From Candidatus Anstonellales archaeon (GTDB lineage: Archaea; Micrarchaeota; Micrarchaeia; Anstonellales; J096): a DNA stretch of 64,000 bases. Numbering within the stretch: the stretch's first letter is position 1; every line of letters begins with the position of its first letter. The notes beneath the pieces were generated by a model. That model saw only the letters and a list, made by a program, of their open reading frames with translations. It was not told where the DNA came from and did not search any database. Position numbers and translations under genes: made by a program. The stretch spans positions 64,001-128,000 of the forward strand of contig JAWACY010000002.1 of assembly GCA_038896535.1 (NCBI GenBank), given 5' to 3'. This document shows, piece by piece, positions 42,313 through 57,681 of this stretch.

Positions 42313-44499
42313 ATGGTTGAGAAACTGCAAAGCCCTCCTCCAGCATATGAGGAAATAAATAAAAACACGAAGGATGAATCAAGAAAGCTGGCATTGGAAG
42401 CCCTTAACTCCCTCAGAAATAACCCCAAATTCAAACAAGAATGGTTAACAAAAGAATTAGGAGAAAAAATCTCATCAATAACAAAGAAAATAATAGAAAA
42501 CACATCAGGAGAATCAAGAAAGTGGGCATTCGAAGCTCTTAACAACCTCCTACAAAACCCAAAATTCAACCCAGAATGGCTAAAACCAGAATTAGGAGGC
42601 AATATATCATCAGTAGTTAATAAGATTATGAGAAACGATTCACTAAGTGAAGAGCAAAAAAGGGCCTCATTAAATAATTTAAATGGACTTCTTCAAAATG
42701 CAGAAAATCCCATACGGATATTGTCAGGACAAGGAGCCACACAACAAACACCAACAGTTAGAGGAGAAGTGGCAAGAAGAGCAAGGAGCCAGATGCAAAG
42801 TGAAAATTATTATAGAGGCATTTCTACTGCTCTGGCTTATTATTTAGTTGGTAAAACTAAATATGAATATTTAATAGCGGAGCAAAGGGATCAACTCCAA
42901 AAATATGGAGTTGATGAAAAAACATTTAATGCTTATATTAAATATTTTAGGGAAAAGGGGGTAAAAAGTAGCATTGTAGATAAAGACGCTTATATTAGGG
43001 GCGTGCCTTTAGAAGAAGCACTTTTTGTAATACTTGTAGTAACAGGGACTGGACCAGTTGGAATGGAGACAATAAGAGAGATAACTAAGAATTACAATGA
43101 AACAAACAAAATGAAAGATATTAACGATTTATTTGGAGGGTCTTTGGCCCACTTAAGTCAACGAGGTGTAAGGGGAGCAAGTGGCTATAAACAGTATTTT
43201 GGTGGTGTGATTGATTATCTAACATGGGAAAGTCCTCAAACGCAAGCAGGACCTTTAGAAGCAATTGGAGATATATTAAGAATGGCTAATGATAACAGAA
43301 AGAATTGGGGAGAAAAAGCTGTAAAAGAAGCATTGGATAACATTAGGGGGCTACTGGCTCAACCAGCACCACCTAAAGTTGAAGAAGGAAAAGTTCCACC
43401 AGCAACAGAACCTATAATTGGAAGGCCAGGTGCTCCCCCTCATGCTGAACAACAACCTGCGCCTCCTATAGCAACACCAAAGCCCGCTGTCACCGCACAA
43501 CCACCAGAAAAAGTAGAATTATTATCGCAGGGAGATTTGCAGAAAATAGTTGATAAATTAAACCAAAATCAAAATAAACCGCCTTATACTAAGTATGGTG
43601 TAGATGAGAGTGAGAATAAAATTAATGTTGCTTATGAAGTGGTTAAAGTGTTGGGGCTTGGTGAAGGACTCACACAAGACATAGAAGAATCAAGAAGGCA
43701 AAGAGCAGCAGTTGATCATGCATATAAGATTATAACTAATTTATCACCAAATGTTGAGGAAAGGAGGCTTTATTTAAAGAATGTAAACCCAGCAGCATTT
43801 GAGGATTTGAGGAGAATATTAAGTGGAACATATGCTTCTAAACTTTTAGATGACATTATAGGTGATGAAGCTGGTAGAAAATATATAAACTTAAAAAACC
43901 TTGATGCATTATATACAACACTTACTAAAGATGGTAGACATGTGTTGATAAAAAGTTTATTGAACGCTGCTGGCGTTAATGAAAATGATTTCTTAGATTT
44001 TATTAATTGGGATAAAGATAAAAAGGAAATTAAAAGTCTTAAAGACTTATGGGAAAGGCTTAGCGATGATGAAACAGGAGCAATGCTGGGAACTGCTGTG
44101 ATGTTTATTGCTGGGTATAAGGGTAATTATTTATACACATCTTATCGCAGCAGGGAGGGCGCAAAAACAGAAATAAGTTTTACTACAGAAGATGTTGAAA
44201 GCAAAATAGGCAAAGGTGGGGGAGTTGTATTAAGTATTAGGGCGCGCTATGGAAATGGACCAATAGAAACAATAACAGAAAAAGAAAAAGGAAAGGGGCC
44301 AATAAGTGAAGAAGATAAGTCAGCACAACCAAGTCTAACGCCTGGCGGTGGAGGGGCTGAGACCCCCCCCACAGCGGAGGGAGGAGGAGAAGGAGAAAAA
44401 AGAGAAGGAACAGAAAGCCAACAACAAGAAAAAAAAGAAGAAAAACAAACAGAAACACCACAAGCACCAGAAGGACCAGGAGGACCAATAACACCATAA
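42313..44499 (+). CDS. 728-aa orphan protein with helical repeats and Pro-rich/acidic disordered segments
   Basis: Long ORF with GGTGG RBS. No signal peptide and no recognised family. Confidence 0.85.
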   Translation: MVEKLQSPPPAYEEINKNTKDESRKLALEALNSLRNNPKFKQEWLTKELGEKISSITKKIIENTSGESRKWAFEALNNLLQNPKFNPEWLKPELGGNISSVVNKIMRNDSLSEEQKRASLNNLNGLLQNAENPIRILSGQGATQQTPTVRGEVARRARSQMQSENYYRGISTALAYYLVGKTKYEYLIAEQRDQLQKYGVDEKTFNAYIKYFREKGVKSSIVDKDAYIRGVPLEEALFVILVVTGTGPVGMETIREITKNYNETNKMKDINDLFGGSLAHLSQRGVRGASGYKQYFGGVIDYLTWESPQTQAGPLEAIGDILRMANDNRKNWGEKAVKEALDNIRGLLAQPAPPKVEEGKVPPATEPIIGRPGAPPHAEQQPAPPIATPKPAVTAQPPEKVELLSQGDLQKIVDKLNQNQNKPPYTKYGVDESENKINVAYEVVKVLGLGEGLTQDIEESRRQRAAVDHAYKIITNLSPNVEERRLYLKNVNPAAFEDLRRILSGTYASKLLDDIIGDEAGRKYINLKNLDALYTTLTKDGRHVLIKSLLNAAGVNENDFLDFINWDKDKKEIKSLKDLWERLSDDETGAMLGTAVMFIAGYKGNYLYTSYRSREGAKTEISFTTEDVESKIGKGGGVVLSIRARYGNGPIETITEKEKGKGPISEEDKSAQPSLTPGGGGAETPPTAEGGGEGEKREGTESQQQEKKEEKQTETPQAPEGPGGPITP
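42376..42636 (+). repeat. Intragenic tandem repeat, 135-nt (45-aa) period
   Basis: GAATCAAGAAAG starts at 42376 and 42511. ESRKLALEALNSLRNNPKFKQEWL versus ESRKWAFEALNNLLQNPKFNPEWL. Confidence 0.85.
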
Positions 44500-44881: not shown

Positions 44882-47800
44882 TTATTTCTCTTCTTCAAGT
44901 TTTTTCTCTAATGCTTTCAAATCCTCAATGAGTTTATCAAATGTTTTTTGTTCGGATTGCTCTCGGAAAATACTAGGGGCACTAACCCTCAAAAAATTAA
45001 AGTACTCTTCATACCTGCCGCTGAAATCTCTAAAACACAGACCAGGCATATTATAAAGATCGTTTATATCATCCCTCATTTGGTTTTTGAATTCTTGTGA
45101 TGTTGTTTTTTTAGTGGCCATTTCTTGTGCTGTCTTTAGAAATTGCGCCTCATAACTATCTGGCACTAGTAAAAAATATGATTCAACACCATCTTGACCT
45201 ATTTTTCCTCCTACTGCTTTTATATAACCTAACGGATTATTTACGATAGATGTATAAAGATTTATTACCTTCTTGATTGAACTAAACTCCGTTTGTTCTT
45301 TTTCTGCTTCCTTTTGTTCTTGTGTTGGTTCTAGTTTTTTGTATAAATCGTTAAATAATCTTGTAATTTCCCCTTCGTTGCCAAGCAATTTTTTCAACGC
45401 TTCATATTCACTTTCTCCCAATATCTCTTTAGCGAGTTTTCCGTCTTCTACTTCTAGTAAAGGAGTATAATAATATATAATGGGCTCTAAATTCCTCAAA
45501 ACTGTTAAAACATCTTCAAAATAGCTTAAATAAGCATTTCTTATTTCACTCCTTATTTTAGATATTTCAAGCAACACATGATATTTAGCCCTTTCTGACA
45601 AATTAAATTTTTTCAGCTTCTCAATTAGTCTTCTCTCTTCTTCCTTTAACTCATTTATTCTGTCTTTGGTTTTTTCCAATGCCTCGTTATTCAATTTTTC
45701 TAATTCATTTATGTAGTTATTTATTGTTCCGCTGTCATATTTTGATAAAAAATCATGTAATGAAACCTGCTCTCCGTTAAAATAAAACCTATAATGAAAA
45801 GGCGTAAATGGTTCTTTAATACCAAGCAAGCTTAAAAAAGGCGACAAAAGTGGCACTCTTGCTTTTTTCTCATCCTCATACTGTTGTTTTACTATTTCTC
45901 TAAATCTATTATCGATCTTACTAATCACATTGTCTTTATCTAAACCAAATTTCGTTGCAAATGACTCCGCAATTCCAGTCTTTATCTCCATAAATGGCGC
46001 TGCACTACCATAATTAACCTTAAAAAACATGAAATCTATTAAAGCTCTATAATCAAGCTTAATATAATCAGCGGCTTCCTCAATAGAAACACCGTATGTT
46101 TTTGCAAGCGCTAAAATCCTTCTTACGGAATAAGAAAGAGCACTTATTACATCCCCTGTATAATTCCATTTCCTTTCATATATAAGAGCCCCTACATCTT
46201 TCTTAAATTTTTCTATGTTGCTTATTCCACTCAATTTTTCTACTGCTTTAACCAATACCTCAACAACATCGCTTTCCTTCATATCGCCAGAAAGATAAAA
46301 AACAGGTGAGCTGGGGTTTCGAATATCTATTTTTGTACTGAGATATGTTATTATTGCAGCCATTTCTCTTATTTGTTCCGGCTTTAGAGTATTCAGGTTA
46401 ACAAGTTTATTTAATCTTACGTATCTCTCCCTCATTTTTTCTGCTATTTTTTCTCTTAACGTTTTTCTTGCTTCGTCTCCATTATAAAAACTATAACTTA
46501 TCCATTGCTTCTTTTCCTCTTCCAACTCTTTTATCTCTTTTTCTCTTTGCCCCCTTATTATATCCCATGCTTTCTTGAATGCTTCCCCTCCTTGTTCAAC
46601 AAGAGTAAATATAAATTTCGGTGGAAAGCCAAAAGTTGATATATCCTCCAATTTCGATATTGATGCAAATTGCAATGTTTCATAAAATGCTTCTAATGAT
46701 GCATACACATAACTATTCTTGCCAAGAGGGTTTTTTCCATTTTCCAGTGCTTGCAGGATTCTTTCCATTAAACCCTTTGCTCTTATAATATCACCAAAAA
46801 TAAGAAGTTTATAAACAATTTCCATATGTTTTGACAGATCTTCTGTTTTTTCTATTTTTATCTCAGTCTTCAACAAATTATCTGCCAACACTGCAGTTCT
46901 CTTATAAAAATCAAAAGCCGAACTTAATACGTTCTTAGCTGCTTCCAATGGGGATATGCCAAGTTTTTTTATGTATTCTAATGCTGCTTCACCTGTATAA
47001 ACTATAATCTCTCCTGATTTGCCTGTTTCTACATAAATCATACCTCTTGCCCTTATATCTCTTTGATATTCACCACTAAATGCATTATTTACATACATAG
47101 CCAAAATATAAAATGCTGCCATTTGTGTATTTGTAAAAACAAATTTCCCAGATCTTATATTTAATGCGCCAGCCGGTGTTTCAAGGCTTAATTTACCGCC
47201 AGCCAGCCACCTAAAATCGAGTAAATCCGGGGCTAATGTAATGCCTGCATATGGCCCAAACTTATGAGACACTCCTGCTAAAAATTCTTCAACCTCGGCC
47301 TGAACATAAGGGTTCCATTGTGGCACTTCTGCCCCAATTGCAACGCCAGAACTAGAAGTTGGAACTTGCATTCTTCTGCCTTCAGGATGTGGTATTTCTT
47401 GTATTGTTCTTTCTTCTACCCTAACTCCAAATCCAGCTGTTGGTTGGAGCTTTTCTGTTGGGGTAATTATCACACCGAAACGAGGGCCTGCCTCTAACCT
47501 TTGTTCATAATAATTAGTTATTGCTGTTGTACCTCTGTTTATAAATACTTCCTCTAAAGCGTTTTTAATATCTTCCAAATTCGCATGTCTATTTTTTGAA
47601 CTCTTGTAAAGAGATTCAACTAGGCCCTCTAAATCTCCTTTTGTAAGATAAACAGTACCCCCCAACAGTTCTTTTATCTTCTGTAGTTCTCCTTCTGATA
47701 GTAAAATACCGCCAGACCCAGCCAAAGCTTGTGGGCCAGCTAATAAATCAATAGGTAGAACAAATACTCGACTCTCTTGATCATATATAACTACTTCCTT

Positions 47801-47986
47801 GCCATTATAGGTTATCTTACCATCCCTCCCTATTTTATAACCAGCATTTTTCATCTTATTTAAAAGCCAATCATAAACCTTTCTCCATGGTTCTCTCTTG
47901 TATTCTTGCTTTTTTCTTTGCTCCTCTGCCTTCTCTGCTGTTTCCCTTGTTCGTTGTTCCAGTTTACTTCCTTTTTCTTGCCCCAA
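44882..47986 (-). CDS. 1034-aa orphan protein; amphipathic beta segment followed by long helical region
   Basis: Long ORF, TTG start after GGTGG. No signal peptide. Confidence 0.85.
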   Translation of the reverse strand: MGQEKGSKLEQRTRETAEKAEEQRKKQEYKREPWRKVYDWLLNKMKNAGYKIGRDGKITYNGKEVVIYDQESRVFVLPIDLLAGPQALAGSGGILLSEGELQKIKELLGGTVYLTKGDLEGLVESLYKSSKNRHANLEDIKNALEEVFINRGTTAITNYYEQRLEAGPRFGVIITPTEKLQPTAGFGVRVEERTIQEIPHPEGRRMQVPTSSSGVAIGAEVPQWNPYVQAEVEEFLAGVSHKFGPYAGITLAPDLLDFRWLAGGKLSLETPAGALNIRSGKFVFTNTQMAAFYILAMYVNNAFSGEYQRDIRARGMIYVETGKSGEIIVYTGEAALEYIKKLGISPLEAAKNVLSSAFDFYKRTAVLADNLLKTEIKIEKTEDLSKHMEIVYKLLIFGDIIRAKGLMERILQALENGKNPLGKNSYVYASLEAFYETLQFASISKLEDISTFGFPPKFIFTLVEQGGEAFKKAWDIIRGQREKEIKELEEEKKQWISYSFYNGDEARKTLREKIAEKMRERYVRLNKLVNLNTLKPEQIREMAAIITYLSTKIDIRNPSSPVFYLSGDMKESDVVEVLVKAVEKLSGISNIEKFKKDVGALIYERKWNYTGDVISALSYSVRRILALAKTYGVSIEEAADYIKLDYRALIDFMFFKVNYGSAAPFMEIKTGIAESFATKFGLDKDNVISKIDNRFREIVKQQYEDEKKARVPLLSPFLSLLGIKEPFTPFHYRFYFNGEQVSLHDFLSKYDSGTINNYINELEKLNNEALEKTKDRINELKEEERRLIEKLKKFNLSERAKYHVLLEISKIRSEIRNAYLSYFEDVLTVLRNLEPIIYYYTPLLEVEDGKLAKEILGESEYEALKKLLGNEGEITRLFNDLYKKLEPTQEQKEAEKEQTEFSSIKKVINLYTSIVNNPLGYIKAVGGKIGQDGVESYFLLVPDSYEAQFLKTAQEMATKKTTSQEFKNQMRDDINDLYNMPGLCFRDFSGRYEEYFNFLRVSAPSIFREQSEQKTFDKLIEDLKALEKKLEEEK

Positions 47987-48039: not shown

Positions 48040-51000
48040 TTACCTAGTAGCCTTCAGTTTTGAGATCCTAAAAATGGCATCAAAATATGCTTTCACTACC
48101 TCTCCTGTTCTTTGAATGTTCAGTGCTATGTCGCCCCCATATTGACTTATTTCTGCGGGCCATGTCTCTGATATTGCCATACTACCATACACAACAATTC
48201 CTTGGAGCAGTTCATTACTTAGATCTTTACCAATAACTGTGGCTCTATACACACCACTACCAAGACGCCATGTCTCATCACTTATATTATTAAAAACAAT
48301 CTCACCATTCTTGATGCTATAATTTATCTCTCTTACTTCATTGTTGAAAGTAAAATCCCCCCTTACACCAGTGCCACCTGGAGTCATGCCTGGCCCACCT
48401 ATATCATGAGTATAAACACCAGTTGCAAGCCAACTTTTATATTTACTGATCTGCCCAATAATAATATCTTCCCTTTCTTTATTTTTTATCTTTACTCCCT
48501 CGCTCGTTTTAACTCTCTCGCCAAAAGCAAGTTGAACATTTGTAACTCTTCTAAGACCAGTTAGATATGTGTTAACTAAATTAAATGTGCCTGTCATTCT
48601 TCTGGCTATTAACTCATCTGCCTTTTCTCCTCCTGCTCCTACATATTGTGTCCCCCCTGTTCCGAAAAATAGCCACTTATTATCTTCTCCTGCAAGAAAG
48701 CCAAGCCACCCACTTGTAGCATCTTTTTGCCCCTTAGCTATATCTATATTTGTTCCTATTAATAACTTACCACTAACAAACTTCGCCTCTAATCTCCCCT
48801 CTAATGCTCCGCCTGTTATTGTTATCCTCTCCTTGCCATTAATTGTTTTGCCGTTTAAATTTTTTAAAACCGCTTCTCCTGTCTTTAAAGGCCCTAAATT
48901 TCTTGTCCACCCACCTAAAACAATAAGCCTCCCTTCTTGGTTTGGGGCAAGAGCAACAATTGCTGATATCTTATTCTTATCATCAAATTCAACATGCACA
49001 AAAGCATGCCTAACCTCCAAATCCTCTATTTTCTCTCTTCCAATACCAGCAATAGCATTAATGGTTTCTGTATCTAAACCTGCGTATGAAAGAAATTGCA
49101 AAACAGTCTTAGGATCTCCTTCTTTTTCTCCATTAACTATCAAAAGGTAATCCCTTAAAAAATACGTAAGAGCTGCTTGTAAACGCCTCCTCCCCTCATT
49201 AAAGTTGTTTATAATACCAAATTGAAAATCAGTACCAAAACTTTGAAGAGTTTCTATTTGTTTTTTTAATAGTGGATCACCTAGATCCTCATTTATTGTT
49301 CTCACAGAATACCCTAATGCTGCTAAAGCAATTGGTGCATTCCTGTATGGATTTGTATATTGAAATTGTGCTCCATATTCTAACTGTACTTTTTTAGGTG
49401 TCCAATGCTTAGTGACTTTATCAACAAAACCTTTTGCTTCCCAATTTGTTGTTCCTGGGGGCGCACTTATCCCACTAATATATACGCCCCGTCTTCCCAT
49501 TACGTCATAAATTTTACCTACGAAGATACTATAATTCCTTTGATCAAGATAGGATAAACCACCTAAGCCACCACCACCAATTGGTAAGTTCTGCCCAATT
49601 AAAAAACCGCCCCATTGATTAACCTGAAGTGCTGGGGCTGCTACAAAACCATCAATACTTGGTTTATTATGCAAGGCTATAACAAGACCATCTAGACTAG
49701 CCAGAGTTGTTCCCTTTGTTTCTCTTCCTCCTTGCACACCAGTTTCAATCACCAATCCCTGCGCCTTTGCCAAATTCCCCTCCTTTGCCTTTTCCCTTAC
49801 CCCTAAGTTATTAAGATAATTTATATACTCCTTTGCTTGTTCTTGTGGTACATAAAAGTATCCTGCTTCTGCATAAGTTCCATTTGGTTGTCTATAAAAA
49901 ATTCTTGCTTTATACTCTCCTTTCTCTATTTCCCCTCCTTTTGTTTTTTCGAAAACAAGGCCAGTTTCAACACCAGTCGGTAATAATAAATTCAACTTGT
50001 CCAAAGTTGTTAATTCTTTTGGCCCTTTATAAGATGCGTTGGCTTCAACAGTCCACAAAGTATTCCCGTCGTTGAGATTCACTCTTTTAAATCTTCCCTC
50101 TGCTATTGTTACTGCCCCCGAATCACTTGAGCCCCCGCCACCACTCAACTCAGCTTCTGTTCTGGTTATGCCTGGAAAGGCCCGTTGAATGTAGCTAAGT
50201 CTTCCGCTGAAATATCTACTCCATTGTCCCTCGCCATTTCTTTCCGCTCTGTAAGTACCGCCAAACGTTCCTTCAATAACTTTAAATGTCAGAGGTCCTT
50301 CAATTGGCAAATACTTGCTCAATATCTTGTTTAATTTACTATAATCAAATGTAAAATAAGGCAAGATTAATTGCAATGCTGGTGTGGTTAAATTAAATTC
50401 CAACATTTCTCCGTTTTCTATTGTTTTTCTGAGTTCTTCAAATGTTTTTGGTAGTGCAGTTGGTATTTCGCCAGGAAGAAGATAACCATGAAGAGAATTA
50501 TACACGGTTCTTGGAAGGTTGATATTGATCTTTAAATCTGGTATATTTACAGTAAAACCTTGTTGTTCTGTTTGTGTTATTTTTATTTTAAAAGTTTCTA
50601 AGCCAGTAGTCTGGTCTCTTTCAACTTTAAGATTTTCCATTTTTATATCTTGAATGGTTGGAAATATTTTATTTAATTCAGTTCCGACTTCACGCAGAAA
50701 ATTTATTGCGCCTGCTGTATAATTACTTTCATATAATGCCTGCGCACTACCTAAAATCAAAGACAACCCATGGCTAAGTATCTCAGTGTTGCCTTGTTTG
50801 CTTACAAAGGGCGTTAGATAAACTGCAGCAGCAAAATGCAGCTCAGGGCGTATCATAGAAAGATTCTCAATAAAAATCCTTAATTTTTCTCCTTCTACTG
50901 TCTTAAGAAATTCTCTAATTTTACTCATCGTTATACGTTCAGGGTCTCCGCCAAGCAAGGAAGCGGCATGCTTGGCTATATAAATTTGTGCGTAGTAATT

Positions 51001-51834
51001 AAGTAGCGCGAACTGTTTCTGTGTTGTCGTATTAGATCCTAAGGCCTCAAAGAATTTATTTCTAATTTCTAAATCTTTTGCCAAATTTTCATCACCATAG
51101 GGCAATATGAATTTTCTCAGTTCTGCCATTTGTTTCTCATTTTCAATTTCAATTTTGCCGTCATAATAAGCAAAAATGTCAGCTATAGCAGTTTGTCTTC
51201 TTCCATAAAATGTTGATAGAATTCTATGGAACAGCGTTCTTGTATCAAGATTGAGATTACTCAAAAGATCTTCGAAATCCTTGAGATCTCCATCTTTCCT
51301 TTTAATCTTTTCTTCTAGAACTTTCTCTAATTTTTCTCCTAATAGCCTTTTGTATTTAGTTTCAAGTTTTTTTAGGTTACCCCAAACTTCTTCTAATCTC
51401 TTTATAAAATCATCAATCTTTCCTCTTACAGTTTTTGCGTCTGCATCGGGGGGAATATTTAGAAAACAATCCGCATAAGCATCCTCTATTATTTTAGCCT
51501 GGGAGGTTAATTCATTTAATAATTTCTTATATTCTTGTATGAGCTCCCTTTCCTTCTCTGAAAAAAAGTCTAGATTAAGTTTACTTAAATATTGAACAAA
51601 CTCATTTAATGTTCTGTAGTTCAAGGCGTATTGGGTATATTTAGGCACTTCTTCCTCTATTTTCTGTGGAGCCTTCATATTAAATAGAAGCGTTAAACCC
51701 ATTACTACGCTCTCTCTTTGCTTCTGCGCCTCATTTGCTGTTTCTATTGCTCTTCTTTTTCCTTCTGTTAGTTCTTCTGTTAGTTGTGGTGTTTCTTTTT
51801 TTCCGACCGGACTTTTTTCTTGTGTGGCTGGCAT
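48040..51834 (-). CDS. 1264-aa orphan protein; helical N-half, Gly-rich beta-strand C-half
   Basis: Long ORF with TTTAAA box about 25 nt upstream. No signal peptide. Confidence 0.88.
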   Translation of the reverse strand: MPATQEKSPVGKKETPQLTEELTEGKRRAIETANEAQKQRESVVMGLTLLFNMKAPQKIEEEVPKYTQYALNYRTLNEFVQYLSKLNLDFFSEKERELIQEYKKLLNELTSQAKIIEDAYADCFLNIPPDADAKTVRGKIDDFIKRLEEVWGNLKKLETKYKRLLGEKLEKVLEEKIKRKDGDLKDFEDLLSNLNLDTRTLFHRILSTFYGRRQTAIADIFAYYDGKIEIENEKQMAELRKFILPYGDENLAKDLEIRNKFFEALGSNTTTQKQFALLNYYAQIYIAKHAASLLGGDPERITMSKIREFLKTVEGEKLRIFIENLSMIRPELHFAAAVYLTPFVSKQGNTEILSHGLSLILGSAQALYESNYTAGAINFLREVGTELNKIFPTIQDIKMENLKVERDQTTGLETFKIKITQTEQQGFTVNIPDLKININLPRTVYNSLHGYLLPGEIPTALPKTFEELRKTIENGEMLEFNLTTPALQLILPYFTFDYSKLNKILSKYLPIEGPLTFKVIEGTFGGTYRAERNGEGQWSRYFSGRLSYIQRAFPGITRTEAELSGGGGSSDSGAVTIAEGRFKRVNLNDGNTLWTVEANASYKGPKELTTLDKLNLLLPTGVETGLVFEKTKGGEIEKGEYKARIFYRQPNGTYAEAGYFYVPQEQAKEYINYLNNLGVREKAKEGNLAKAQGLVIETGVQGGRETKGTTLASLDGLVIALHNKPSIDGFVAAPALQVNQWGGFLIGQNLPIGGGGLGGLSYLDQRNYSIFVGKIYDVMGRRGVYISGISAPPGTTNWEAKGFVDKVTKHWTPKKVQLEYGAQFQYTNPYRNAPIALAALGYSVRTINEDLGDPLLKKQIETLQSFGTDFQFGIINNFNEGRRRLQAALTYFLRDYLLIVNGEKEGDPKTVLQFLSYAGLDTETINAIAGIGREKIEDLEVRHAFVHVEFDDKNKISAIVALAPNQEGRLIVLGGWTRNLGPLKTGEAVLKNLNGKTINGKERITITGGALEGRLEAKFVSGKLLIGTNIDIAKGQKDATSGWLGFLAGEDNKWLFFGTGGTQYVGAGGEKADELIARRMTGTFNLVNTYLTGLRRVTNVQLAFGERVKTSEGVKIKNKEREDIIIGQISKYKSWLATGVYTHDIGGPGMTPGGTGVRGDFTFNNEVREINYSIKNGEIVFNNISDETWRLGSGVYRATVIGKDLSNELLQGIVVYGSMAISETWPAEISQYGGDIALNIQRTGEVVKAYFDAIFRISKLKATR

Positions 51835-51864
51835 AGAAAAATTTGAATAAATGAGTTTAAAAAT

Positions 51865-53712
51865 CTATATGAAATACTTGCAAGGAGAATTTAAAAGCGT
51901 TAGATTAATATCGCACTTATAGTCTAATTCTTTCGTTGCTCCGCCTATATTTCTTTGCACATTTTCTATTGTTAAATTAATTGTATAACTCTTTTTTTCG
52001 TCTTCACGCATATTATTAAAACCGTCCCTTGATGCTGTGGCATTAAATAGCATATAAGCTTGTTTTGGTTGAGATGTAGTCGTGTCGTTAACAATACTTA
52101 TTAATGCTGATAATTCAGCCAATAAATCACTGCCATCTTTAACCCCATACTTAGGAGCATTATCACAGCTCAAATATCTGTTTTGAGATATGTCAAAACC
52201 GCAAAATATATAACTGTATTTAAGAGTGCCGGGCAGCAATATAACTTTAACCGGCTGAGGAGAGCAAGCCAAAGATCCCATGCAATAAAACACCCTACTC
52301 TTATTGTTATCATCCTCATTGCTTTCAGCTATACTATTTTCAGGATCAGCACTCGTATTTACCTCTATTATTTTAAATTCATCTTCGCATATTAAATTGA
52401 ATTTTACTATATTATTATCTGGTGATAGCTCATATTTATCCTCTATTATTGTGCTTTGTGTTTGTGTTGTTTCTTTAATTTTCAATGATAAATTTGCTTT
52501 TCCTTGTGGCGGGAAATTTTCAAAAATAATCGATGCATTACACTCATAACTTCTGCCTTGGCCTATTTCATTGCCATTAAATGGGCATGATATGTCTGAT
52601 TTTAAGTTTGGTGTCAATATATTTACTGTTATTTGTGTAGTTATTGTATAACCACTACACCCAGATTCTAATGATTGAATTGTAACATTAAATGTCAGGC
52701 TTGCTGGCATTGGTTGATTGCCATTATAATTTAAATCCCCTGTTACATCAGCACTACTGCCACTAGCTATTTCCACCTGATTATCAAGAGAAAAAGCGAA
52801 ATTATTATCATTAGGCACTACAGATATAACTTTTATCTTCTCTTCTCCATTATTTGTGACTTTTATTGTAACTTTTGTAGGGTTTCCAGTATATACAATT
52901 CCATTACTTGATAACTGAACATTTATTAATTTACAATATGGCACATTAACCGGCAAGCTTATTGAGTAAGCATCTGTAGGTTGCCTGAAATATCTTATTC
53001 CTTCCCTAAAAGAAAAATAAGTATCATTCATATCAACAAGTAAGACACAAAAATAATTGGCATTTGCATTTATTGAATTTGGATTATTACTTATTGTGAA
53101 AGTTTTGGCAAAACTATTGCCTGATTCGCCACTTATAGATTGATAATAATTGTTAACAGATATATCCCCATGACAATACATTACTGCTGAACCATTTGAG
53201 ACTTTCCAGTTATTATCATTATTATAATATTTAACATTTACTTGCCTCCCGTTTGAAATTGAGAAAGCACATGAACCAGTTTTATTAAAATAATAATAAC
53301 CAACGCCATTACCAAAATCTGTTTTACAATTGTTTGATGCGTCGAATGGAAGCGAGCCTTGTTGGATAAAATTTACTGTTAAATTTTGCAATCCGGGCCC
53401 AGTTCCGCCAGTCGAGCCAAATGAAGAGCTTGTTGATGATATTACATCACCAGTAGGCCAAAACTTTAAAGTTAGGTTTGCTAAAACGTTAAATGGTTTA
53501 TTTGGTATTACTTTTTGAACTCTTACACCATTTTGATAAAAATCAACTGAAAAGTTAAATAACCATGAAATTGGAGCAATTAAATCAAAATTAGTTTGTT
53601 GCCCTGAACGAGGAGCATTTCCTGCCTTATATAAGTCACTTCCAGATTGTGATGTTTGTGCACTAAAAACAATTGTTAAAATTAAAAATAAAAAAAATAT
53701 TTTTTTTATCAT
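51865..53712 (-). CDS. Secreted Ig-like/CARDB-domain surface protein
   Basis: Signal peptide MIKKIFFLFLILTIVFSA, Asn-rich with many N-x-S/T sequons and paired Cys, CARDB-like ADPENSIAESNEDDN. Confidence 0.8.
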   Translation of the reverse strand: MIKKIFFLFLILTIVFSAQTSQSGSDLYKAGNAPRSGQQTNFDLIAPISWLFNFSVDFYQNGVRVQKVIPNKPFNVLANLTLKFWPTGDVISSTSSSFGSTGGTGPGLQNLTVNFIQQGSLPFDASNNCKTDFGNGVGYYYFNKTGSCAFSISNGRQVNVKYYNNDNNWKVSNGSAVMYCHGDISVNNYYQSISGESGNSFAKTFTISNNPNSINANANYFCVLLVDMNDTYFSFREGIRYFRQPTDAYSISLPVNVPYCKLINVQLSSNGIVYTGNPTKVTIKVTNNGEEKIKVISVVPNDNNFAFSLDNQVEIASGSSADVTGDLNYNGNQPMPASLTFNVTIQSLESGCSGYTITTQITVNILTPNLKSDISCPFNGNEIGQGRSYECNASIIFENFPPQGKANLSLKIKETTQTQSTIIEDKYELSPDNNIVKFNLICEDEFKIIEVNTSADPENSIAESNEDDNNKSRVFYCMGSLACSPQPVKVILLPGTLKYSYIFCGFDISQNRYLSCDNAPKYGVKDGSDLLAELSALISIVNDTTTSQPKQAYMLFNATASRDGFNNMREDEKKSYTINLTIENVQRNIGGATKELDYKCDINLTLLNSPCKYFI

Positions 53713-53724
53713 TTTTTCACTTTA

Positions 53725-56700
53725 TTATGTAGATTCAGCATTCTTAAATAATTCTTCTGCCATTTCTTCTGGATCTCTTGTTATTGTTCTCCCCCATGCA
53801 TCTACATCTTCTGTTCTTAAACCTATCTGTTCTAAAAGCCAATTAACTGCCCTCTCTGCTCCAGACACAATAACTGTAAGTATTGGGACAAAGTAAGGGC
53901 CTACTTGAATAACAGAAATGCTAGGGTTAACAGACCAGTTCTCTCGCTCATAACTAACTGTATAAGTATTTATTAATCCCACTGATGGAATTGGGCTCCT
54001 TGCCCAAGATAAACCAAATTTTCCACCGCCAATTGCATAACTAGCTCCTGCTCCCCACATTAAACCGGCGCTGCTAAAACCAACAAATGGAGAAACAGTT
54101 AAATCTCCTAATCTAACATATGGGGACAGAGCAGCCATTCCATAAATAGCGAGGGCATTAGTTGCACTAGCACTAAGAAGCCAGGCAAGTCCAACATTCT
54201 CATTCCCAAATATTGGGAATGCAGTACTTATTCCAACTCCGGGATTTACAAATTTTCCATTAACAAACATAATTTGTGGCTGAATAGTAAATGGCCCCTC
54301 ACGAAACTCTAAGCCAACAATTGCTGTCCTTCTCAATCTATCAGCAAATAATTTTTGCTTTTCTTTTAATGTTAATTCTCTTGGCCTCTGCTCTCTTACC
54401 TCTTTTATTATTGGTTTAATCTTCTCTTGGTCTTTTTTATCAAATTCAAGCCCGCCTAATTTCTGGCCATTACTGTCTTTTACTTCAATAAATATTTTAT
54501 CATTTGTTTCTGTTACTGTATAATTATAATTCCTAAGATTGTGAGCCACATTTTTAAGTCCTTCTTTTGTATTTTCTCCTATATTAGGTATCTGATCGAT
54601 CTGATCATCGGTTGGCACATTAACGACCCAATTACCATTTTGCTTCGTGAGAGTTAAATTTTGCTGTAATTTCTTTATTGCTTCTTCAGCAAGGTTGCCG
54701 CCTACATCAGAAGGTAATATTGAACGAAATTCCGTCAAAGATATTTCATAACCAACAACTTCTGTTCTTATTATTGATTCCGTTGCTGTTGTTGGTAGGC
54801 TAACTACTGGCACAACTGGAAGGAGTGTTAAGTCTGGCTTTCTTGGCTGAATAAAAATTGGTGTTCCTACATTATCTATCATACCATAAAATTCTACTTT
54901 TGGCAGTTGCGGAGCTCTACTAACACTTTCTGAAGGAACAGGCATAGTTATAGAAAATTCTCCTCCCCACCTTGAAACGCTGCCATAACCAAGCTCAACA
55001 TCGCCATTCAATACAAAATAGTTGCGCCATATAAGTGCATCTTTTTTGTTATCCTCTTCTTTTTCATTCTTTTGTGATAGCATTAAAATTGCCATACTGG
55101 CACTTGATGCCATTATTATATTTTCTCTATCATTTTCTGGTGTCAGGACAAGCCTATCATTTTTCGTTACTAATATATCATCTTTTGCGGCTGCGTTAAC
55201 TGTTACATTCCCTCTATTATCAACATTAACTCTATAAACTGTTATTCTTTCACCATTTGGCTTTAAGATATCTATGTTATAAGTTCCGGGCTTTAAATTT
55301 TTTGCTTTAATTGTCTCTTGAATATTTTCAATCTTTTGTTGACTGCCAAACACATTTCTGTTTATATTGATGCCTTCTGTTGCTTTTTGCCATCCAGCTA
55401 TCCAATTTTGAGCATTAAATGCATTTCCAACCAGATCTTCAAATGGATATTCAACTGCCTGTATTGCAAACAAAACTGCTGCAGCATCTTCAACCGATAT
55501 TTTATTACTAAGGCCAAGTTCTTGTATCAATTTTCTTGCACTATCTCTTAAGTTATTCTTTTCTGTATCAGACATGGAATCAAAAATCCTTTGTGTATTA
55601 TTCAGAAAGTAATCAAAAACCGCGTTATATCTCCTCCTATATACTTCATTAGCTTCTTCGCTTACATAACCAAAATACCTTCTTATAACAAATTCTTTTA
55701 GGCCATTCAAATCATTTACTCTGCTGCCTTTAGCATATTTAACAATCCAAGCAACAGATGGATAATAGCCAAGAAATTCTTGGCTGTATTCATAACTTGC
55801 TGTTATACTATAACCTTTACCTTTCTTCTTTTCTCCTGCTGGTTTATAATATACTCTTGTCTCTGTTGCCCCTTGTGGTGGTTGTGGCTGCAGTGGTGAT
55901 TCAGGTGGTTTTTGTTCAACTTCAACATACTTAACCGGTAGCTTTGGTTGTATGCTTTCTACAAGTTTTAGAATACGCAAACCCTGCTTTTGCTCTTCTG
56001 ATCCTTTAGCAAAATATTCGTTTTTATTAAGCTCTTCATTAAAAGCAGAAATCTCATTATCGGTTTTTAAATGCTCCTTTATAATATTAAGCACATCGAC
56101 CTTTTCATTATCAGGCAACTGCTTATTCATAATTTGTATTAATGCTATTCTCCTGATTAAAGGCTCTAAAAACAAGGGCATAAAATCTTCTTCTATCCCT
56201 ACTCTTTTTGCCAGTGAAACAAGCTCACTCCTTATATCATTATCCTCTTTCTTTAACTGTTCTATCTGTGCAATAACATCTTTTAGATTAACATTATTCT
56301 TCAACATAAATACAACATCATTTATATCATAACCATAATCCCATAATAAACTTTTTACATCTTCCTCATTATTTTCATTGATAGTAATATTTTTTTGTTT
56401 TAATTTTTCTTTTATTTGCTGCCACACAACATCTGACCATTTTTCTTTTATTTTGTCTTCCAGATATTCGTTAAAATCTCTATACTTCATGCTTCTTAAG
56501 TTAATACTTTTTTCATACCAGTCTTCATCCAAAAGTTCAGCAACAAATGATAAATATTCATCCGCTGTCATTGAATTCATTATTTGAGTCAAAAAATTTT
56601 GCCTTCTCATAGAAACAATTGAAAATGCTTCTCTATCCCCTGCACTTCTATATGATAATCTTTCTTGAATAAGAATTAAAGCAAATTGGTTTGCAACTGT

Positions 56701-57681
56701 CATTGTAGAAGCTTTTGCATTCATATCAGCAAATGTTTTTGCCAGCTTTCTGTATTGCTTTTCAAACTCTTCTTTTTCTTGATCTCCTGAATTTTTACTT
56801 ATACTGTCTTTATAGAATTTTTGTAGTTTATCATAAAATTCTGAGACAATAAGATAAATAGATGCCAGCTTTCCTGCTTCTGCATCAAAAAGATGAAGAT
56901 ACTTACTTGGCAATTTTCCTCCTTCTACCAATCTTTCTACTACTCCCCTTAAGTCATTCATGCCTTTACTCAACTCATCGTAAAAATCATTCATCGATTT
57001 TGTTAGGTCTACTTTTTGTTCTCTTTCTCCTATTTGTTCATTAGAAATTAAAATGGAATAACCCTTAGCTAGAGTCAAATTCAAATATGCAACAGAATCA
57101 TAAAGCTCTTTGCCGGTTTTGAGCTTTTTTTCATCAAATAATGCTTTCATAATAAGTCCTATTGTTGCTTCCATATATACATTTTTTTCTTTTGCTGGCA
57201 ATTCTAAACTTTGGCCAATTGAATCAAAACCATCATAAGCAATGCCAATAACTTGCAATAGACTAAGCCTTATTCTTCCAGCTTCTGTTCCAACATCTTT
57301 TAACTCTGCAAGAGATTTTATCACATCTGCAATCTCTTCATCCCCTAATCCTTTCCTTTTTGCAGCTAATTCAACAAGCATTGCTGCTTCTATTGTTGAC
57401 GCATATCTTGCCTTTTCTTTAGGGTCTTTTTCATTCAATATACTCTCTATAAGTCCCCTATCAGTCCTTACAAGATAGGCAATTCTACCAAAAAAAGTTC
57501 TAGGCCATATTTTTGCATAACCTTGCTTTACTAATCTATCTATTAACTCACCTTCATTTTTTATTTGAAATTTGTTTACATATGCACTTAATACTTCTTC
57601 GCTTACCCCATATTTTTGTGCTAATTGCTTAACATCAATTTGTTTTTCAGTTGCTGTTTGATCAGGCATTTTTACACCCAT
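53725..57681 (-). CDS. 1318-aa orphan protein; helical N-part, C-terminal beta-barrel-like block
   Basis: Long ORF with no signal peptide. C-terminal ~155 aa of alternating hydrophobic beta strands. Confidence 0.88.
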   Translation of the reverse strand: MGVKMPDQTATEKQIDVKQLAQKYGVSEEVLSAYVNKFQIKNEGELIDRLVKQGYAKIWPRTFFGRIAYLVRTDRGLIESILNEKDPKEKARYASTIEAAMLVELAAKRKGLGDEEIADVIKSLAELKDVGTEAGRIRLSLLQVIGIAYDGFDSIGQSLELPAKEKNVYMEATIGLIMKALFDEKKLKTGKELYDSVAYLNLTLAKGYSILISNEQIGEREQKVDLTKSMNDFYDELSKGMNDLRGVVERLVEGGKLPSKYLHLFDAEAGKLASIYLIVSEFYDKLQKFYKDSISKNSGDQEKEEFEKQYRKLAKTFADMNAKASTMTVANQFALILIQERLSYRSAGDREAFSIVSMRRQNFLTQIMNSMTADEYLSFVAELLDEDWYEKSINLRSMKYRDFNEYLEDKIKEKWSDVVWQQIKEKLKQKNITINENNEEDVKSLLWDYGYDINDVVFMLKNNVNLKDVIAQIEQLKKEDNDIRSELVSLAKRVGIEEDFMPLFLEPLIRRIALIQIMNKQLPDNEKVDVLNIIKEHLKTDNEISAFNEELNKNEYFAKGSEEQKQGLRILKLVESIQPKLPVKYVEVEQKPPESPLQPQPPQGATETRVYYKPAGEKKKGKGYSITASYEYSQEFLGYYPSVAWIVKYAKGSRVNDLNGLKEFVIRRYFGYVSEEANEVYRRRYNAVFDYFLNNTQRIFDSMSDTEKNNLRDSARKLIQELGLSNKISVEDAAAVLFAIQAVEYPFEDLVGNAFNAQNWIAGWQKATEGININRNVFGSQQKIENIQETIKAKNLKPGTYNIDILKPNGERITVYRVNVDNRGNVTVNAAAKDDILVTKNDRLVLTPENDRENIIMASSASMAILMLSQKNEKEEDNKKDALIWRNYFVLNGDVELGYGSVSRWGGEFSITMPVPSESVSRAPQLPKVEFYGMIDNVGTPIFIQPRKPDLTLLPVVPVVSLPTTATESIIRTEVVGYEISLTEFRSILPSDVGGNLAEEAIKKLQQNLTLTKQNGNWVVNVPTDDQIDQIPNIGENTKEGLKNVAHNLRNYNYTVTETNDKIFIEVKDSNGQKLGGLEFDKKDQEKIKPIIKEVREQRPRELTLKEKQKLFADRLRRTAIVGLEFREGPFTIQPQIMFVNGKFVNPGVGISTAFPIFGNENVGLAWLLSASATNALAIYGMAALSPYVRLGDLTVSPFVGFSSAGLMWGAGASYAIGGGKFGLSWARSPIPSVGLINTYTVSYERENWSVNPSISVIQVGPYFVPILTVIVSGAERAVNWLLEQIGLRTEDVDAWGRTITRDPEEMAEELFKNAEST

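Follow-up and report, generated by a model that had tools for sequence, protein, structure and literature searches.

The locus analyzed here raises the question of whether an archaeon can encode a very large membrane β-barrel and, if so, into which membrane such a protein would be inserted. In the textbook view, single-chain membrane β-barrels belong to the outer membranes of bacteria and to the organelles derived from them, and they need an Omp85 insertase. The window, by which we mean the whole stretch of 64,000 nucleotides that was analyzed, stems from the genome of a Candidatus Anstonellales archaeon (GCA_038896535.1; 752 kb, 91% complete, here called G000), and the archaeal markers recognized by Pfam within it are Hjc, aIF2-β, HMG-CoA reductase and a UbiA prenyltransferase. 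G000 also contains a gene for an S-layer protein that scores above the Pfam cut-off. An initial annotation, made from the sequence itself, had pointed to a glycine-rich β region of about 750 residues between positions 48040 and 50290 and proposed that it forms a very large β-barrel without a signal peptide, acting as a pore or translocon that might be inserted into a host membrane.

Layout of the P0001 gene product

The region from 48040 to 50290 corresponds to residues ~515-1264, which make up the C-terminal part of a single ORF of 1,264 residues (P0001, 48040..51834, minus strand) that lacks a leader and is predicted to consist of a helical N-terminal region followed by a plug domain and a β-barrel. 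The glycine content of residues ~515-1264 is 13.5%, compared to 4.9% in residues 1-514, and all nine strand motifs quoted in the initial annotation are present, at residues 521, 541, 594, 818, 970, 1135, 1156, 1232 and 1249. The C-terminal residue of P0001 is not aromatic, and a short basic tail follows the last strand.

Residues 1-388 (50671..51834, minus strand) probably form a soluble helical region, of which residues 294-388 are a conserved helical bundle; the model of P0001 reaches pLDDT values of 74-93 for residues ~304-393, and helix periodicity is visible in the family columns. It is followed by a conserved IP-x-I-x-P-K/R-x-VY domain at residues 389-491 (50362..50670, minus strand), predicted from a homologue model and family homology to be a plug within the barrel. 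This domain falls just outside the region singled out initially and was missed there, as was the family context described below, with signal-like leaders in many relatives and, in many of these, a putative internal promoter and a start that skip the leader. For the first half of the β region, residues 515-830 (49345..50292, minus strand), both a profile match and predicted strands were obtained, and residues ~616-676 contain a conserved unit of three strands plus a helix, located in or on the putative barrel. The second half, residues 831-1246 (48097..49344, minus strand), has strands predicted at low pLDDT and no detectable family homology. No 19-residue window in P0001 exceeds a hydropathy of 1.08, and so the protein has no transmembrane helix.

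A family of large Micrarchaeota proteins

Searches with P0001 as a single sequence returned one protein, namely P0001 itself, and later three, with two partial relatives gained and none in two metagenome scans, and a first profile (A3) again returned one protein only. The ESM Atlas gave no usable match (all below 0.9), a sequence search of the PDB produced only PDZ matches with E values of 0.8-0.9, and Pfam gave no match for P0001 and no credible one among 28 family members. Profiles built from more rows revealed a family of Micrarchaeota proteins of 1,200-2,200 residues, of which P0001 is a divergent member, and in which a variable helical region is followed by the conserved helical bundle, the IP-x-I-x-P-K-x-VY domain and a Gly-rich β region. 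Members are labelled Micrarchaeota by their sources, and one of them comes from Ca. Bilamarchaeum dharawalense, a genus placed in Anstonellales.

A three-row profile gave matches in 12 of 176 genomes of the order and an 11-row profile in 23 of 401 genomes of the class. With 26 rows, 23 of the 176 genomes of the order were matched, including all three other genomes of the genus of G000, and with 28 rows 23 of 401 sampled genomes of the phylum, in families f1, f9, f16, f20 and f26; these later counts include the rows from which the profiles were built, and the alignments exclude two genomes in which the gene has masked bases. The 28-row search found no member in the large families f15 (0/94), f19 (0/83) or f6 (0/30), counts that describe the sample and do not imply absence.

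A profile built without the genus of G000 matched residues 358-830 of P0001 at an E value of 2.3e-14, the next ORF of G000 appearing at 2.2, and the plug and barrel motifs are retained in order. For P0001 itself, homology thus covers the helical bundle, the plug and the first half of the barrel. Residues 790-1264 obtained a leave-one-out family score of zero or below, within the range of shuffled sequences, and for the part from residue 831 to 1264 the link to the family therefore consists only of continuity and of predicted strands. P0001 sits on a long branch of a quick tree, and its best identity to the family is 23%.

Predicted fold of the β region

The structure prediction that the initial annotation had proposed as a check was carried out for residues 294-1264 of P0001 with an alignment of 34 rows. 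The resulting model is of low confidence (pLDDT 52.7, pTM 0.34, with pLDDT below 50 for 460 of 971 residues) and contains helical and loop insertions together with 28 strand segments between residues 518 and 1246. It nevertheless resembles membrane barrels, since the titles of 49 of the 50 listed VIA matches denote membrane barrels, most of them running from the first strand to the last, and the best has a Z of 13.1 with an rmsd of 9.2 over 263 aligned residues. A homologue from genome G103 (956 residues, 32 rows) was modelled better, with a pLDDT of 76.5, a pTM of 0.58 and, beyond the conserved domain, 35 strands, and here all 50 listed VIA matches carry the title of a membrane barrel, most covering the first to the last strand (best Z 15.6, rmsd 13.0, 261 aligned). 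The ushers FimD and PapC are the top Foldseek matches of both models, at E values of 1.3e-8 for the homologue and 1.7e-4 for P0001, the TM-scores for the homologue model staying below 0.2.

TM-scores of the models against any solved barrel do not exceed 0.21 and the rmsd values are high, and the predicted resemblance to solved barrels is one of shared architecture rather than of demonstrated homology. Closure of the barrel was judged from the match ranges and the contacts, not from coordinates. The number of strands is estimated at ~26-32, the homologue model having 35 of which 11 do not contact the plug, and 28-32 strands correspond to a diameter of 52-59 Å at an assumed shear, i.e. a barrel ~5-6 nm across. 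The folds that had been named as refuting a barrel (a solenoid, a propeller, Ig repeats, or the lack of an outward hydrophobic belt) did not turn up: solenoid, propeller and Ig folds are absent from the VIA matches, and with Foldseek a few propeller- or Rhs-containing entries rank low, at TM values of 0.04-0.09. Collectively, the models support a very large single-chain membrane β-barrel for the family. For P0001 the original claim of such a barrel draws mainly on the homologue model, the fold matches and the two faces described below, and weakly on its own model.

A predicted plug domain and the two faces of the putative barrel

When the conserved domain of the homologue was folded against its own β region with a second predictor, the pair scored 0.73, with 0.00 for the best of three controls and a score mark that was passed by 116 of 157 solved complexes and by 2 of 215 mismatches; the two partners are parts of one chain, so that resemblance to plugged barrels of known structure may have contributed to this score. 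The plug-barrel runs agreed in at least 87% of the contacts, and the partner pLDDT was at least 68. In the homologue model an antiparallel meander surrounds the plug, and the plug domain contacts mostly alternate residues on 24 consecutive strands of the 35.

This alternation defines a plug-facing and an outward side. In the family columns the fraction of charged residues is 0.24 on the plug-facing side vs 0.10 outward, and that of large hydrophobic residues 0.28 vs 0.46, while in P0001, with 41 mapped positions per face, large hydrophobic residues make up 0.46 outward vs 0.39, and charged residues 0.07 vs 0.15. A polar inner face around a plug combined with a hydrophobic outer face is what we would expect from a plugged membrane barrel, and is the opposite of a lipid-carrying groove.

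The alternation of hydrophobic and small residues had been claimed for P0001 itself, and on its sequence alone the claim is not confirmed, since the alternation does not exceed that of shuffled sequences: a crude strand count gives 22 vs 21.9 ± 3.3 in shuffles (273 of 500 reach it), and the face difference on the strands of its own model is 0.245 vs 0.215, a value reached by 363 of 2000 shuffles. On the family columns the alternation is significant, at 0.968 vs 0.781 ± 0.049 and a maximum of 0.916 in 300 shuffles, and on the strands of the homologue it was equalled by none of 2000 shuffles. An aromatic last residue (F, W or Y) is found in 19 of the 24 complete homologues vs 46 of 487 ORFs in G000.

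Leaders, internal starts and putative promoters

The absence of a signal peptide from P0001, as noted initially, agrees with its best N-terminal hydropathic segment (1.75 over 12 residues), which aligns with a helix of the homologues, and with the mere 30 nt between the ATG and the upstream stop. A leader missed upstream is excluded for P0001 by this gap and for six leaderless homologues by reading in three frames. A crude rule called 20 of 34 N-termini in the family signal-like, with false calls in both directions, and by reading about 10 of the 34 members have no leader, P0001 included, two of these coming without DNA to check. On at least four branches of the quick tree, in which branches are long, leaderless members and sisters with a leader stand side by side. 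In most relatives the conserved leaders combine basic residues with a core of weak hydrophobicity, and in family f16 they look canonical.

A TATA-like 8-mer located 27-33 nt before an in-frame ATG just past the leader was found at the 5' ends of 15 of 28 barrel-family ORFs (L033, L032, L035, L070, L071, L072, L036, L037, L034, L039, L077, L115, L083, L003 and L080) vs 3 of 108 controls, where the controls are other ORFs of the same loci and one of the three positives has the same 5' DNA as a family gene, and where the pattern was defined after the motif had been seen, in related genomes, and is such that T-rich boxes like that of P0001 escape it. None of the 15 genes shows an equal pattern before the start of the leader itself. 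The internal TATA word stays AT-rich even in genomes of 57-65% G+C, and its distance to the ATG matches the spacing before real starts in G000, where TATA-like 8-mers peak at -32..-25 (19% per bin vs 3-7%). The internal TATA box sits inside the coding leader and is visible in the protein as a conserved 'NIN/NIK', located ten codons ahead of the Met.

In G000 a TATA-like T/A-rich box, identified by eye and outside the strict 8-mer pattern, is located at 51856..51863 (minus strand) within the 30-nt gap, at -29..-22 from the ATG, which suggests that P0001 may have a leaderless transcript of its own. The simplest reading of these sequences would be that a leaderless product is normal for the barrel family and that many members can make a leader-bearing one as well.

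Neighbouring genes and insertion machinery

The barrel gene of G000 belongs to a run of four genes. Upstream is a gene for a secreted protein of 615 residues with a weak CARDB match (51865..53712, minus strand), which is conserved in the genus but, in the other genomes read, is not adjacent to the barrel gene. It is preceded by a gene for a leaderless protein of 1,318 residues with a β-rich C-terminus (53725..57681, minus strand), a protein found in none of 30 relatives; β strands likewise form the C-terminal end of the products encoded at this position in G001, G002 and G011. A leaderless, β-ended gene precedes the CARDB gene in four genomes (window 53725-57681; L014:1324-3186; L012:645-5849; L015:1136-4861), two of the products having a terminal Phe, and these genes, which share no detectable identity with each other, could possibly represent a second, smaller barrel family. 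A small hydrophobic protein with a common motif is encoded after the CARDB gene in G001 (L011:15942-16403) and G002 (L013:15939-16334).

Downstream of the barrel gene lies a gene for a leaderless protein of 1,034 residues (44882..47986, minus strand). The position after the barrel gene is taken by large genes in G001 and G002 as well, and the 1,034-residue protein has no detectable homology to their products. The convergent gene at 42313..44499 (plus strand) encodes a protein of 728 residues, of which residues 235-424 match the N-terminal part of the G001 barrel homologue at an E value of 3e-7, and which is possibly a detached module of the barrel system; its N-terminal helical repeat of ~75 residues is common to two other G000 ORFs (at the start of contig C3 and at C1:389083-389814). 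Four more secreted proteins of 1,400-2,050 residues are encoded in G000, at C3:7081-12375, C3:20599-26742, C1:233878-238800 and C5:12612-16823.

Family f9 shows a three-gene order in which a giant protein and a protein of 330-830 residues precede the barrel (L033, L035, L037, L038, L040, L070, L073, L075 and L115), and this set is often located near a phosphohexomutase-like gene (named by eye). No convincing counterpart of the two f9 upstream genes was found in G000, the best match having an E value of 1.6e-4 over ~110 residues elsewhere on contig C2. At L032:10360-15456 and L073:34-5772 a second giant protein, helical and then Gly-rich and β-like, and without a match to the family profile, is encoded directly after the barrel gene, and in L032 the second giant gene has the DNA from the TATA box to the N-terminus in common with the first, which could reflect either a duplication or an artefact of the assembly. 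In G001, genes resembling two pilus/secretion ATPases and two membrane platform proteins by eye (L030:488-5354) lie back to back with the barrel gene.

With respect to insertion machinery, Omp85/BamA (PF01103) was not found in G000 (91% complete) nor in any of five other carriers, a search that a divergent insertase could escape, and TamB was found in none of the five genomes searched. SecY is present in all five genomes and TatC in none, which rejects the Tat route.

Discussion

Taken together we tentatively favour, with nearly an even chance of being right, the reading that a plug-gated single-chain barrel, itself predicted with fair support, is made without a leader, enters the cell's own membrane from the cytoplasmic side and lets large cargo pass. 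The barrel, of ~26-32 strands and ~5-6 nm, would hang from the soluble helical region; a leaderless transcript would be translated in the cytoplasm, and the product would enter the cytoplasmic membrane from the inside, independently of BAM and with the helical region pointing inwards. As long as the plug shuts the pore the membrane would remain sealed, and a shift of the plug would allow large cargo such as polymers, nucleotides or proteins to pass, most likely upon contact with a host cell. No cell is known to place a barrel of this kind into an energised membrane from the cytoplasmic side. The signal-like leaders of most relatives (20 of 34 under the crude rule) point to export and to the opposite topology.

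The same plugged barrel could indeed be exported, through Sec when a leader is present and through a dedicated or piggy-back route when it is not, and enter a host membrane as a feeding or delivery pore, which was the destination considered initially. A pore in a foreign membrane would be costless to its maker, and the conserved coding leaders in most relatives, canonical-looking in f16, and the pilus/secretion-ATPase-like operon back to back with the barrel gene of G001 (by eye) are consistent with such a role. We consider it somewhat unlikely for a protein that has neither a leader nor room for one, for whose leaderless form no export route was found, whose source genome has no known host, and whose plug would be needed more in the cell's own membrane. 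One gene might also provide two forms, a leaderless one made from the internal TATA promoter for the own membrane and a leader-bearing one exported into the host membrane, which jointly would make up a gated cell-to-cell channel; we regard this as unlikely, and equally so that G000 has retained only the leaderless form of the gene, as the two-form reading would have it. A second, outer membrane, in which the barrel would reside as a gated transporter or as a translocon, in the manner of TonB-dependent receptors or ushers, would account for the OMP-like terminal aromatic residue and the leaders of the family and for the plug inside the barrel, and two membranes have been hypothesised earlier for Micrarchaeota, according to the accessible part of that report (10.1101/2021.04.28.441871). 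The same part of the report describes a cultured Micrarchaeum whose cytoplasmic membrane is covered by an S-layer, an S-layer protein above the Pfam cut-off is encoded in G000, Omp85 and TamB were not found in the genomes searched, and Sec cannot bring a leaderless chain to an outer membrane, all of which makes a resident outer-membrane barrel quite improbable.

Two further explanations concern the fold rather than the membrane. The family may form barrels while the copy in G000 has diverged or decayed, so that its C-terminal half is no closed membrane barrel and the protein serves as a soluble or membrane-associated scaffold. This would fit the long branch and the best identity of 23%, the missing terminal aromatic residue, the unalignable residues 790-1264, the insertions, the pLDDT below 50 for 460 of 971 residues and an alternation within that of shuffles; set against these are an intact, full-length ORF with plug and barrel motifs in order, a model that still matches barrels from the first strand to the last, and a homologue in all three other genomes of the genus, and we judge decay to be distinctly unlikely. 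An open, taco-shaped sheet with a hydrophobic groove ferrying lipids, like AsmA/TamB, VPS13 or lipovitellin-type proteins, appears most improbable of all. Foldseek does list lipovitellin, MTP, vitellogenin and ApoB for the homologue (best E 6.6e-7, TM 0.08), and lipid import would be useful to a host-dependent cell, but no such protein is among the 50 listed VIA matches of either model, HMG-CoA reductase and UbiA prenyltransferase are encoded in the window, and in the homologue the concave face is polar, charged and filled by the plug whereas the hydrophobic face points away.

The closest architectural counterparts of the plug-gated barrel proposed here are the TonB-dependent receptors (BtuB 1nqe, FyuA 4epa, ShuA 3fhh, OprC), which like the barrel family have an N-terminal plug inside a C-terminal single-chain barrel and an aromatic end, and whose VIA alignments to the homologue begin in the plug region (model residues 128-138; Z 9.5-12.2). 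TonB-dependent receptors have 22 strands, whereas at least 24 strands contact the plug and up to 35 are predicted in the homologue. The barrel family also differs from them by a helical region of 400-1,200 residues before the plug and P0001 by the lack of a leader, and no Pfam domain of TonB receptors or their plugs was found among the 28 family members. The ushers FimD and PapC, LptD, MtrB, Deinococcus SlpA and SprA of the T9SS are similar in size class and in having a plugged or partner-filled lumen, and SlpA, LptD, MtrB and SprA also appear in the fold-search lists, with identities of 5-13%. All of these are known from diderm bacteria, where they depend on Sec for export and on BAM for insertion, and no gene for any of their partners turned up in the loci read. 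In layout P0001 resembles TonB-dependent receptors and ushers, and it departs from them in strand count, leader, terminal residue and insertase.

A literature search, including term look-ups in PMC13607799 and PMC12892359 and with subscription papers and supplements outside its scope, produced no description of the barrel family, while the accessible part of one paper mentions a possible distant porin relative in Altiarchaeales (PMC12228718). As far as the accessible part of the tomography study of Microcaldus variisymbioticus ARM-1 goes, an unidentified barrel-shaped complex 21 nm wide is located at the host contact site (PMC11329633). Like the predicted fold of the present family it is barrel-shaped, and it lies in the envelope of a Micrarchaeon, but 21 nm far exceeds a monomer of 5-6 nm, and the complex is thus too wide to be one such chain. 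Exchange of material between DPANN archaea and other cells is described as unresolved in the part of a review that was accessible to us (PMC6349945).

The barrel family is a concrete candidate for this exchange. If very large plugged barrels do exist in single-membrane archaea in which no Omp85 was found, and often without a leader, a new route of insertion would be needed, and a channel built from two forms, if true, would be the missing molecular conduit of DPANN symbiosis.
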